A stretch of 64,000 bases of DNA from Escherichia coli. Its GTDB lineage: Bacteria > Pseudomonadota > Gammaproteobacteria > Enterobacterales > Enterobacteriaceae. The stretch lies in assembly GCF_044324785.1 (NCBI RefSeq), contig NZ_CP172127.1. One strand, 5' to 3'. The translations under genes were made by a program, and so were the position numbers. A model generated the notes under the pieces. That model did no database searches, was not told the DNA's origin, and worked only from the letters and a program-made list of their open reading frames with translations. Positions 1-53,217 of the stretch are shown here, piece by piece. Numbering within the stretch: position 1 is the stretch's first letter; each line of letters starts with the position of its first letter.

Positions 1-788
1 TGGGTTTTCTTTCCGGTAAGCGCATTCTGGTAACCGGTGTTGCCAGCAAACTGTCCATCGCCTACGGTATCGCTCAGGCGATGCACCGCGAAGGAGCTGA
101 ACTGGCATTCACCTACCAGAACGACAAACTGAAAGGCCGCGTAGAAGAATTTGCCGCTCAATTGGGTTCTGACATCGTTCTGCAGTGCGATGTTGCAGAA
201 GATGCCAGCATCGACACCATGTTCGCTGAACTGGGGAAAGTTTGGCCGAAATTTGACGGTTTCGTACACTCTATTGGTTTTGCACCTGGCGATCAGCTGG
301 ATGGTGACTATGTTAACGCCGTTACCCGTGAAGGCTTCAAAATTGCCCACGACATCAGCTCCTACAGCTTCGTTGCAATGGCAAAAGCTTGCCGCTCCAT
401 GCTGAATCCGGGTTCTGCCCTGCTGACCCTTTCCTACCTTGGCGCTGAGCGCGCTATCCCGAACTACAACGTTATGGGTCTGGCAAAAGCGTCTCTGGAA
501 GCAAACGTGCGCTATATGGCGAACGCGATGGGTCCGGAAGGTGTGCGTGTTAACGCCATCTCTGCTGGTCCGATCCGTACTCTGGCGGCTTCCGGTATCA
601 AAGACTTCCGCAAAATGCTGGCTCATTGCGAAGCCGTTACCCCGATTCGCCGTACCGTTACCATTGAAGATGTGGGTAACTCTGCGGCATTCCTGTGCTC
701 CGATCTCTCTGCCGGTATCTCCGGTGAAGTGGTCCACGTTGACGGCGGTTTCAGCATCGCTGCAATGAACGAACTCGAACTGAAATAA
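1..788 (+). CDS. fabI: enoyl-ACP reductase FabI (5' partial: first base of the ATG lies outside the window)
   Basis: Window begins tgggttttctttccggtaag = (A)TG GGT TTT CTT TCC GGT AAG (MGFLSGK); ORF continues to stop at 788; translation ...MNELELK recognised as FabI. Confidence 0.93.
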
Positions 789-49724: not shown

Positions 49725-51356
49725 TTAGTGCTTCACAATGTACATATTCCGGGTGTAGGTATTATCCAGCGGATCTTTGCCGGTATAGCCACCAACCCAC
49801 GGTTTCACCAGACGCGCATTCACGTAGTAATAAACAGGAACAATGGCCGAATCCTTATCCAGCTGTTGTTCTGCTTTAGTGTACAGAGCTGTGCGCTGCG
49901 CCTCGTCAGTCACTTTCAGCGTTTCCGCCATAATGCTGTCAAAGGCCGGGCTCTTATAATGCGCGGTATTCATCGAGCTGTTCGACAGCATGGTGTTCAG
50001 GAAGGAAGTTGGTTCGTTGTAGTCTGCACACCAGCCTGCACGGGCCACATCAAAAGTGCCCTGGTGACGGGTGTCGAGGAACGTTTTCCACTCCTGGTTA
50101 ACCAGTTTGACGTTTACACCAATGTTTTTCTTCCACAATGAAGAGGCTGCAATCGCCAGCTTTTTATGCAGATCGGAGGTGTTATACAACAGGTTGATGG
50201 TTAACGGTTTGTCTGCGGTATAACCCGCTTCAGCCAGCAGTTTTTTCGCTTCTTCGTTACGTTTTTCCTGGCTCCAGCCAAACCATTCCGGCTGAGTCAA
50301 TTTTGCGCCATCAGTATACGGTGGAGTGTAACCATAGGCGGGCATGTCGCCCTGCGCTTTCACTTTATTAACAATGATATCGCGGTCCATACCCAGTTTC
50401 AGTGCGGTACGCACACGTACATCGTTAAATGGCGGTTTCTGGTTGTTAATTTCGTAATAATAAGTGCACAGGTATGGATCAACGTGAACTTCGTCCGGGA
50501 TCTCTTTTTTCAGCTTCTGGAACAATTCGATCGGCATGTTGTTATACGTCATGTCGATTTCACCACTACGGTAGCGGTTGACATCGGTAACTTCAGAAGC
50601 AATAGGCAAATAGGTTACCTGGTTAATAACGGTTTTCGCGTTGTTCCAGTAAGTCGGGCTGCGTTCAAGAACGATTCGCTCGTTTACGACCCAATCTTTT
50701 AAGGTATAGGCACCGTTGGTGACGATATTTCCAGGCTGGGTCCATTTTTCGCCGAATTTCTCGATAGCGGCTTTTGACACCGGTGAAGTTGATGGGTGAA
50801 CAAGTAATTTATAGAAGTACGGAACAGGTTCACTTAAGGTGACTTCTAATGTGTGATCATCAATAGCTTTCACGCCGAGATCGGTAATCGGTTTTTTCCC
50901 TTCAAGAATTTCATCAATACCGGCGATATGCCCATATTGCAGATAACTGGCATACGGAGAAGCGGTGTTCGGATCAACAGAACGTTGCCAGCTATACACA
51001 AAGTCTTGGGCTGTGACTGGCGTGCCATCAGACCATTTCGCATCTTTACGCAAATGGAAGGTCCAGACTTTCGCGTCTTTATTATCCCAGGATTCAGCGA
51101 CGCCAGGTGCTGGATGACCGTCAAGATCGCTGACCAGTAAGCCTTCAAACAGGTCTCGGCTGATATTAGACTCCGGAACACCTTCAATTTTGTGCGGATC
51201 TAATGACTGAACTTCTGAACCATTGTTACGTACCAGCGTTTGTTTTTCCGCCAGTGTGACGCCTGCGGGTACATCAGCTGCCAGCGCGACATTCCCTGCC
51301 ATTAGCGCAGCCAGAACGCCAGCTGCTACTAAACTTCTCTTGGTGATGTTGGTCAT
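49725..51356 (-). CDS. oppA: periplasmic oligopeptide-binding protein OppA
   Basis: ORF 49725..51428 trimmed to MTNITKRSLVAAGVLAALMAGNVALA (signal peptide) with SD gagggag upstream. Confidence 0.95.
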   Translation of the reverse strand: MTNITKRSLVAAGVLAALMAGNVALAADVPAGVTLAEKQTLVRNNGSEVQSLDPHKIEGVPESNISRDLFEGLLVSDLDGHPAPGVAESWDNKDAKVWTFHLRKDAKWSDGTPVTAQDFVYSWQRSVDPNTASPYASYLQYGHIAGIDEILEGKKPITDLGVKAIDDHTLEVTLSEPVPYFYKLLVHPSTSPVSKAAIEKFGEKWTQPGNIVTNGAYTLKDWVVNERIVLERSPTYWNNAKTVINQVTYLPIASEVTDVNRYRSGEIDMTYNNMPIELFQKLKKEIPDEVHVDPYLCTYYYEINNQKPPFNDVRVRTALKLGMDRDIIVNKVKAQGDMPAYGYTPPYTDGAKLTQPEWFGWSQEKRNEEAKKLLAEAGYTADKPLTINLLYNTSDLHKKLAIAASSLWKKNIGVNVKLVNQEWKTFLDTRHQGTFDVARAGWCADYNEPTSFLNTMLSNSSMNTAHYKSPAFDSIMAETLKVTDEAQRTALYTKAEQQLDKDSAIVPVYYYVNARLVKPWVGGYTGKDPLDNTYTRNMYIVKH

Positions 51357-52093
51357 TGTTTTTTGGACTCCCTCATTATAATTACTGGTATTAACCAGCA
51401 TGTGTAATCCCGGATTGGGACCCTGCACAGGCTCGGAGACTTTCTGCTGTCAGGTTACTTTATCGTTACGGATTGCTATCACCGACTTTATTTATTCTGG
51501 TGATTCAGACGATCACCTTATGTCGATTCGTACTGTGTCTCCCCTGTCGAGACACATTATTCTTTCGCGACGCTCTTTAATTGTTAATTATTCTCATTAC
51601 CAATAAAGAATCGCCTGACGGTTGCCCGGAAAGTACCAAATGCGGTTCTTACTCGCCAATACATTTTGCAAAATTGTTAAGCAATTCTCTTTTATTGACC
51701 GTATCAGAATCTATAGCTTGTATCCATGACTTAACAAACATCTTTAAATTCAATCAAATAGAGATTGGTTAAGCATGTCTATCTTTTCTGATTACAGTTC
51801 CAGTAGTGAAATGCACAATAATTTAACAATTGATTATTATTTAGCACTTTCCTCTACCAAAGGCAGTGGAATTACTAATATCATTTCAATTATTCTTCAG
51901 CAAGCCCAGGATTATGATGTGGCGAAAATAACATGATGGTAAGGAGAAGCAGTTAAGGAAATCCTTATAACTACCTGTAATTTGAGAAGAATATTTTTAC
52001 CTATTCCTTTTGCTTTTGATAACTGCGCGGGAACAAAGTAAAAATAATGACGAAGTAAACGGAGCATGGCAGCTCCGTTTCATTTGAAAGGAA

Positions 52094-52741
52094 TTAATTA
52101 AGCAGGCCGGGGAAAATCCCCTTAATACCAGTAACGATAAATTCAATCCCCAATGCCATCAGCAATAGCCCCATAATACGCGTAATCACGTTGATGCCGG
52201 TCTGGCGTAAAACCCGTACCAGCCACGGTGCCATGCGGAACAATCCCCAGCAACATAAAGCGAACAAAGCAATAGCCACAAAGAAACCAAACAGATAGCT
52301 AATGCTGTGATAACGCGTACCCCAGACGATGGTAGAACTGATCGCCCCTGGCCCCGCCATCAACGGCAACGCCAACGGCACCACACCAATGCTTTCACGT
52401 ACCGCGGTTTCTGATTTTTCTTGCTTGTTCTGTTTATCCTCGCCAAGCTTGCCGCTGATCATCGACATCGCTATCGTCACCACCAGGATGCCCCCGGCGA
52501 TACGGAACGAATCAATTGATATACCAAAAAGTTGCAGAATCGTGTCGCCGAGAAAAAGCGAGATCCACAAGATAATGGCCACAGACAGGTTGGCTGTAAG
52601 GTTCGTTTTGTTTCGCGCTGCCGCTGTCTGATAACTGGTCATGCTGATAAAGACGGGAATAATCCCTACCGGGTTGACCAGCGCAAATAACCCGATGAAA
52701 AATTTGAAGTAAACGGGAAAATCAAAAAGGGTCTGAATCAC
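52094..52741 (-). CDS. ychE: MarC-family inner-membrane protein YchE
   Basis: 215-aa polytopic ORF; synteny between oppA and adhE. Confidence 0.85.
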   Translation of the reverse strand: MIQTLFDFPVYFKFFIGLFALVNPVGIIPVFISMTSYQTAAARNKTNLTANLSVAIILWISLFLGDTILQLFGISIDSFRIAGGILVVTIAMSMISGKLGEDKQNKQEKSETAVRESIGVVPLALPLMAGPGAISSTIVWGTRYHSISYLFGFFVAIALFALCCWGLFRMAPWLVRVLRQTGINVITRIMGLLLMALGIEFIVTGIKGIFPGLLN

Positions 52742-53217
52742 GGTTAGCTCCGAAGCAAAAGCCGGATAATGTTAGCCATAAATAAGGTTGAAAAGACGCG
52801 CTGACAATACGCCTTTTGACAGCATTTTTCACCTCCTAACTACTTAAAATTGCTATCATTCGTTATTGTTATCTGGTTGTGCAAAACATGCTAATGTAGC
52901 CACCAAATCATACTACAATTTATTAACTGTTAGCTATAATGGCGAAAAGCGATGCTGAAAGGTGTCAGCTTTGCAAAAATTTGATTTGGATCACGTAATC
53001 AGTACCCAGAAGTGAGTAATCTTGCTTACGCCACCTGGAAGTGACGCATTAGAGATAATAACTCTAATGTTTAAACTCTTTTAGTAAATCACAGTGAGTG
53101 TGAGCGCGAGTAAGCTTTTGATTTTCATCGGTTAAGCAAATCATCACCGCACTGACTATACTCTCGTATTCGAGCAGATGATTTACTAAAAAAGTTTAAC
53201 ATTATCAGGAGAGCATT

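Follow-up and report, generated by a model that had tools for sequence, protein, structure and literature searches.

The promoter and leader region upstream of oppA, to which the DNA examined here belongs, is already known. Two promoters, P1 and P2, and a long 5′ untranslated region (5′ UTR) were described for the Escherichia coli oppABCDF operon by Igarashi and colleagues in 1997 (as cited in PMC9988348). Working in K-12, Carrier, Lalaouna and Masse (RNA Biol, 2023; PMC9988348) placed the starts of P1 (+1) and P2 (+246) by primer extension, found that P1 gave the stronger OppA-LacZ activity of the two in lacZ fusions, and positioned the RNase E site (+341), the MicF pairing region (+372 to +393), and the Hfq-binding stretch (+484 to +492), the last of these near the Shine-Dalgarno sequence (SD). 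The literature has both Hfq and GcvB binding the leader near the SD, MAPS/RIL-seq data list the “ychE_oppA IGR” as a MicF partner, Lrp ChIP-seq in K-12 showed strong enrichment at the oppA promoter and repression that depends on Lrp, and a genomic SELEX survey in K-12 included the ychE>oppA spacer among the regions that bind RNA polymerase and gave it an HNS flag. In Salmonella, the oppA 5′ UTR is processed to yield OppX, a sponge for MicF reported by the Vogel laboratory (as summarised in PMC9988348), and the OppX RNAs known there are sense-strand fragments of the leader. An RNA-seq study (Raghavan et al. 2011) is reported to have found an Hfq-dependent, terminator-less “ychE-oppA” sRNA in E. 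coli, which we infer, by analogy with Salmonella OppX, to be a sense-strand leader fragment as well. Small proteins encoded antisense to other transcripts also occur in E. coli and have been validated, according to Weaver et al.

The window analysed here is a stretch of 64,000 nucleotides of E. coli DNA in which oppA and ychE are separated by a spacer of 737 bp (Table 1). A first-pass annotation had described this spacer as a long AT-rich region holding an unlisted 53-codon open reading frame (ORF) with a weak SD, and had offered two readings of that ORF, a small protein gene or chance in a long regulatory leader. The description was borne out in each respect: GC content is 0.37 overall and falls to a minimum of 0.295 (about 0.30) at 51700–51899, with the flanking genes near 0.48; the ORF begins with ATG and its translation is identical to the one first given; and its anti-SD duplex is weak, at − 2.9 kcal/mol. 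The annotation was silent on the strand of the ORF, on its antisense position relative to the leader, on its overlap with the core of P1, and on its being the 3′ remnant of a 98-codon frame annotated in K-12-type genomes. The ORF runs along the plus strand, with both oppA and ychE on the minus strand, and covers P1 from − 69 to + 93 in antisense. We conclude that the stretch is the known oppABCDF regulatory region and that, on the antisense strand of this region, the ORF has stayed open by chance, a reading to which we give a probability of about 0.92. It was reached from the coordinates of the features, the match of the promoter motifs to the published landmarks, conservation that follows the promoter elements one by one, and an absent coding signature, all of which were observed directly.

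The spacer aligned with 95–99% identity to 5423 of the 5426 complete E. coli genomes searched, the best matches being O157:H7 (99.2%). An Rfam scan of 51000–52500 on both strands returned one chance match to a miRNA model (E = 0.38) and no known RNA family. Downstream of the ychE stop, a hairpin read directly from the sequence is probably the ychE terminator, and a consensus terminator scan did not flag it. Immediately upstream of ychE, RefSeq annotates ychT (b4771), a small ORF of 17 aa at 52772–52825 on the minus strand, which is far under the 60-aa ORF cut-off of the first-pass annotation and for which the PGAP rows give the gene field as “ychE”.

Table 1. Positions of genes, promoter and leader elements, reading frames, and insertion scars in and around the ychE-oppA spacer of the window
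Feature	Position	Strand	Remarks
oppA	49725..51356	-	
ychE-oppA spacer	51357..52093		737 bp
oppA 5′ UTR from P1	51357..51867	-	511 nt; ATG at +512
MicF pairing site (+372..+393)	51475..51496	-	published position mapped to the window
RNase E processing site (+341)	51527	-	published position mapped to the window
Stem-loop, eight pairs, GC-containing	51534..51556 (terminator-like site to 51566)	-	precedes the RNase E site by 7 nt when read on the oppA strand
oppA P2 start (+246 of P1)	51622	-	by arithmetic from +341 = 51527
oppA P2 extended -10, TGgTACTTT	51630..51638	-	-10 96%, TG 83% conserved
98-codon frame of K-12-type genomes	51640..51936	+	1784-2080 in L001 and L002
oppA P2 -35, TTGGCG	51654..51659	-	82% conserved
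Best-conserved spacer block, AAAAGAGAATTGCTTAACAAATTTGCAAATTGTA	51660..51693	-	P2 -38..-71 (P1 +175..+208)
53-codon ORF	51775..51936	+	ATG start
IS5U TTAG target duplication, 4 bp	51841..51844		ORF codon 23; P1 +24..+27
oppA P1 start (+1, A)	51867	-	from +341 = 51527
oppA P1 extended -10, TGaTATTAG	51875..51883	-	TG 100%, TATTAG 100% (77 loci)
oppA P1 -35, TTGCTG	51898..51903	-	93% conserved (77 loci)
Hairpin, AAACGGAGC-N6-GCTCCGTTT	52057..52080	-	read directly from sequence, after the ychE stop
ychE	52094..52741	-	
adhE	starts 53218	+	

The published numbering was anchored on the oppA part of the T7 primer EM4528, which starts at +341 and corresponds to the minus strand from 51527. With this anchor, the published +1, +246, +341 and +372..393 positions and the SD near +492 map consistently, to 51867, 51622, 51527, 51496..51475, and the oppA SD. 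Within the leader, complementarity to MicF is best from 51497 to 51474 (19 of 22 pairs, MicF nt 3–26, with a MicF sequence that agrees with primer EM2982), about 120–140 nt upstream of the oppA ATG, and, used as a ruler, it independently puts the P1 +1 at 51866–51868. The layout of P1 is TTGCTG-N17-TATTAG with an extended TG, the − 10 hexamer occupying − 13 to − 8 and ending 8 nt before 51867, and that of P2 is TTGGCG-N18-TACTTT with TG, its − 10 hexamer likewise stopping 8 nt short of the start at 51622. From one − 10 hexamer to the other the distance is exactly 245 nt, which equals the published spacing of P1 (+1) and P2 (+246).

Conservation was measured in 77 non-redundant Enterobacteriaceae loci, for which the registering anchor overlaps the P1 − 10 but is present in every locus. 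Base by base, conservation inside the ORF follows the − 35, TG, and − 10 elements of P1, while the “n” of TGn is conserved in about 70% and the middle of the spacer between the hexamers in 30–60% of these loci. Judged by its hexamers, spacer, and element-wise conservation, P1 reads as a sigma-70 promoter, its start being taken from the K-12 experiments. Conservation in the spacer is highest in a block that precedes the P2 − 35, which has 70–90% identity per base and holds a TTGC-N11-GCAA symmetry; it is probably a regulator-binding or UP-type element. A CRP-like palindrome at 51918–51933 on the minus strand, upstream of P1, is also conserved across genera, with the consensus TGTTA-N6-TCACA and the E. 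coli form TGTTA-TTTTCG-CCACA. A class I CRP site was considered for it and rejected, the palindrome being centred at about − 58.5, off the standard class I spacing, and it could be the site of another regulator or a UP-like element.

The wider comparison used 80 loci from different Enterobacteriaceae species, collected by means of a YchE anchor. In all 75 of these loci with both genes on the retrieved sequence, and in three E. coli reference loci besides, the ychE/oppA spacer is 661–878 bp long with a GC content of 0.34–0.45, so that a long AT-rich spacer is in itself an old, conserved feature. Across 24 non-Escherichia genera, two blocks stand out, at 51627–51686 (73–85% identity) and, inside the ORF, at 51807–51926 (64–79%). 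Both promoters and the region of the MicF site are retained in 75 species, which indicates that the two-promoter, long-leader architecture predates the divergence of the Enterobacteriaceae genera compared.

Taken together with the published work, these features suggest the following course of events. P1, on the minus strand, would fire at 51867 to give a leader of 511 nt, and P2 would start at 51622. The leader would be cut by RNase E at +341, pair with MicF at +372..+393, and bind Hfq and GcvB near the SD, with Lrp acting at the promoter region and the spacer bound by H-NS as the literature has it. The ORF is open in E. coli proper only through the chance absence of a stop in that frame, and the conservation inside it belongs to promoter and leader DNA, not to a protein.

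The length of the ORF is within chance for the local composition: when the spacer sequence was shuffled 2000 times with dinucleotides preserved, an ATG-initiated frame as long as 53 codons or longer arose in 42.5% of the shuffles, and another ORF in the real spacer is longer, at 68 codons. The SD of the ORF is weak. The anti-SD duplexes of oppA, oppB, ychE, and adhE range from − 5.8 to − 8.4 kcal/mol, against the − 2.9 kcal/mol of the ORF, and 37.5% of the 24 ATGs in the spacer score at least as well as that of the ORF in anti-SD pairing. Genes with a weak SD do exist. A consensus scan found no plus-strand promoter between 51567 and 51775, and the sole plus-strand match, TGCACA-17-TATTAT, is inside the ORF and has a − 35 that varies among genera. 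Read on the plus strand, the stem-loop at 51534 scores as intrinsic-terminator-like and stands upstream of the ORF. The ORF does not appear in the accessible text of Weaver et al. 2019 or of Stringer et al. 2021, and in the PIRT-seq supplements only oppA and ychE appear, in gene lists.

The same frame is annotated in other genomes. K-12-type RefSeq records carry a PGAP call of a 98-aa “hypothetical protein” (WP_001211520.1 and WP_001211521.1) that shares its stop with the 53-codon ORF, and of 30 complete E. coli genomes sampled evenly, 17 had this call and the rest lacked it; PGAP made none at the locus in L003, the O157 record that was examined. The window breaks the 98-codon frame twice, by TGA at 51727–51729 and TAA at 51745–51747, and the 53-codon ORF opens at the ATG that comes next. 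The frame and stop of the two RefSeq proteins are those of the window, where TGA and TAA cut the frame and leave its last 53 codons; the 53 residues are identical to the C-terminal 53 of WP_001211521.1 and differ from those of WP_001211520.1 at one residue (T34/N). Allele-specific searches found the TAA haplotype in 447 of 5426 complete genomes (~ 8%) and the open haplotype in 4525 of 5426. Taking TAA as the ancestral state, as the A aligned there in the cryptic clades might suggest, was rejected because these sequences align poorly around the codon and no more than ~ 8% of genomes have the allele, and we claim no polarity. The 98-codon version also reaches over the P2 − 35 and the conserved block that precedes this hexamer, and at least 98 codons, with any start codon allowed, were reached in only 4% of shuffles.

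A search of 5.8 billion proteins returned 50 relatives, all unnamed or “hypothetical” and with called lengths of 53–143 aa; those with a source name were labelled Escherichia or Shigella, except for one labelled Enterobacter hormaechei. Pfam and NCBIfam gave no match to the 53- and 98-aa peptides, and there was no Pfam domain in the matching part of any of the 50 relatives. The protein labelled E. hormaechei (P0013) has 98 aa and is 93% identical to the E. coli ORF, and the ychE-oppA locus of E. hormaechei (L032) has no equivalent ORF; the assembly behind P0013 is probably mislabelled or contaminated.

Insertion sequences also interrupt the spacer. The MG1655 reference genome carries IS5U within it at 1299499–1300693 (1100–2294 in L084), which separates P1 from oppA and splits the ORF, and NCTC122 carries the IS3-family element ISSen4 between P1 and P2, at about 51704–51710 of the window (1283–2500 in L085). 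A single spacer match of at least 80% was lacking in 83 of 5424 matching records. The insertions, the two nonsense alleles, and the TAA allele that O157/O145-type strains have in common all show that interrupting the frame is tolerated. Users of Ribo-seq data should bear in mind that MG1655 reference coordinates carry the IS5 element 24–27 nt downstream of P1, with the ORF split. In U00096.3 the ORF is on the complement strand, its start codon at 1300761–1300763 and its two parts at 1300694–1300763 and 1299403–1299498, whereas in the IS5-free strain BW25113 (NZ_CP087136.1) it occupies complement 1295406–1295567.

The first-pass annotation had proposed that conservation of the reading frame in Enterobacteriaceae, and the pattern of synonymous and nonsynonymous change, would tell a gene from a chance frame, and in both respects the evidence went against a gene. 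The frame is not kept. In the closest non-coli Escherichia (L004), ATA replaces the ATG of the ORF; the ATG is also missing from the four cryptic Escherichia species, in which one additional base following CAGCAAG shifts the frame by + 1 onto stops; and all other genera have lost 1 nt in mid-frame, share neither the start nor the stop of the E. coli frame, and in most cases carry internal stops. An ATG ORF crosses the conserved P1 core in the E. coli frame in only 17 of the 80 loci, with lengths of 11–165 aa and stops scattered over 180 nt, and the other two frames across the core did no better in the same loci. A shorter conserved micro-ORF lying under the block in one of those frames was rejected, as no frame had a conserved start and stop. 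The peptide “(E)ITNIISII.QQA..” that does recur across genera is conserved because its codons overlie the − 10, TG, and − 35 DNA of P1.

Substitutions in the ORF show no codon periodicity. Differences at codon positions 1, 2, and 3 were 0.126, 0.119, and 0.113 among Escherichia species and 0.352, 0.379, and 0.397 in the 24 other genera; the corresponding values in ychE were 0.035, 0.004, and 0.246, and 0.101, 0.033, and 0.502, and oppA had a pattern like that of ychE in the same loci. Relative to the four cryptic clades, dN/dS over codons 2–43 of the ORF was 0.95–2.76, which gives no sign of purifying selection on a protein, against 0.011–0.038 in ychE and 0.006–0.077 in oppA. The nominal dS was 0.10–0.22 in the ORF and 0.49–0.92 in the neighbouring genes, and this low value, together with the dN/dS, indicates constraint on the DNA and not on a protein. 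Within E. coli and its nearest relative, the differences are too few for dN/dS, the ORF differing from K-12 by 1 nt, and the dN/dS of 0.33 against L004 comes from 7 differences only. Of the two readings first offered, chance in a long regulatory leader therefore stands, and the small protein gene, having failed on frame, periodicity, and dN/dS, does not; the 53-codon ORF is almost certainly not a gene, and we infer that no functional protein is made from it.

Three other explanations were weighed. The first, that a young small protein gene has arisen de novo in E. coli alone, in the shape of the ORF or of its 98-codon form, and is read from an antisense or divergent transcript across P1, draws on the ATG and intact frame of the E. 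coli records examined, on the prevalence of the open allele where the window has TAA (about 4525 of 5426 genomes), on the 4% of shuffles that reach 98 codons, on its prediction by PGAP and other pipelines, and on the antisense small proteins validated in E. coli according to Weaver et al. Set against these are a dN/dS of about 1 or above relative to the sister Escherichia and the missing codon periodicity, the start lost in L004 and the frameshift in the cryptic clades, the two nonsense alleles tolerated in the window (one of them in ~ 8% of genomes), the splitting of the frame by IS5 in the MG1655 reference, the weak SD and want of a consensus promoter on the ORF strand, the flagging of the spacer as H-NS-bound, and the lack of any domain or family, and we regard such a gene as very unlikely. 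Less likely again is that the 98-aa form was once a functional gene, intact in K-12, of which the 53-codon ORF is a remnant decaying in the O157-like lineage of the window; this we consider close to negligible. The two nonsense changes relative to K-12 do fall in one frame, and the nonsense allele is the minority state, but the 98-codon frame is no better conserved outside E. coli than the 53-codon one, P2 and the adjoining conserved block lie under its N-terminal half, and it has no homologue outside the ychE-oppA locus.

The third explanation turns from protein to RNA, with the conserved block at 51807–51935 representing a conserved plus-strand antisense RNA that regulates P1 of oppA, and not the promoter itself. 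The strong conservation of the block across 24 genera would suit it, as might the reported Hfq-dependent “ychE-oppA” sRNA, were it from the plus strand; but conservation peaks exactly on the − 35, TG, and − 10 of a minus-strand promoter that has a primer-extension start, no Rfam match rises above chance, the plus strand has no conserved promoter consensus (the TGCACA-17-TATTAT match inside the ORF being variable in its − 35), and the Salmonella OppX RNAs are fragments of the sense-strand leader. We place it between the two gene-based explanations, as very improbable. A more venturesome version of the coding idea, and a long shot, is that a very young, E. coli-specific ORF receives low-level translation from pervasive antisense transcription across P1 and thereby modulates P1 firing. 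If this were true, P1 would be modulated through transcriptional interference, by the product or, more plausibly, by the act of transcribing and translating, and the O157-type nonsense alleles and the MG1655 IS5 would be natural loss-of-function variants. The frame may be translated at a low level in E. coli.

On the preferred reading, that of a chance frame over the known oppABCDF regulatory region, the main value of the case is in annotation hygiene, and as a discovery it amounts to little. A 98-aa protein is called by PGAP across the P1 and P2 promoters of oppA in about half of the E. coli genomes sampled, and the comparative evidence indicates that the call is spurious. The locus can also serve as a worked example of promoter conservation that mimics conservation of an ORF.

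In relation to described systems, the ORF resembles the validated small proteins of Weaver et al. 2019 and Stringer et al. 2021 in its size class and in its context, as a short intergenic frame on the strand opposite an expressed one; it differs in that those proteins are backed by initiation-complex profiling and tagging, whereas the ORF lacks a comparative coding signature. With the OppX system the likeness is on the other strand. The leader of the window corresponds to the OppX-yielding region of Salmonella, and the E. coli and Salmonella loci (L013 and L014) have P1, the MicF site, and the length of the leader in common, the ORF running antisense to the presumptive 5′ end of OppX-L. Stable OppX-like fragments were reported in Salmonella but were undetected in E. 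coli by Carrier et al. (PMC9988348). The closest described system is the published E. coli oppA promoter region itself: the allele of the window is O157-like and has a few SNPs, the published experiments were done in K-12, and the two are the same locus at 98–99% identity, with nothing of substance differing between them.
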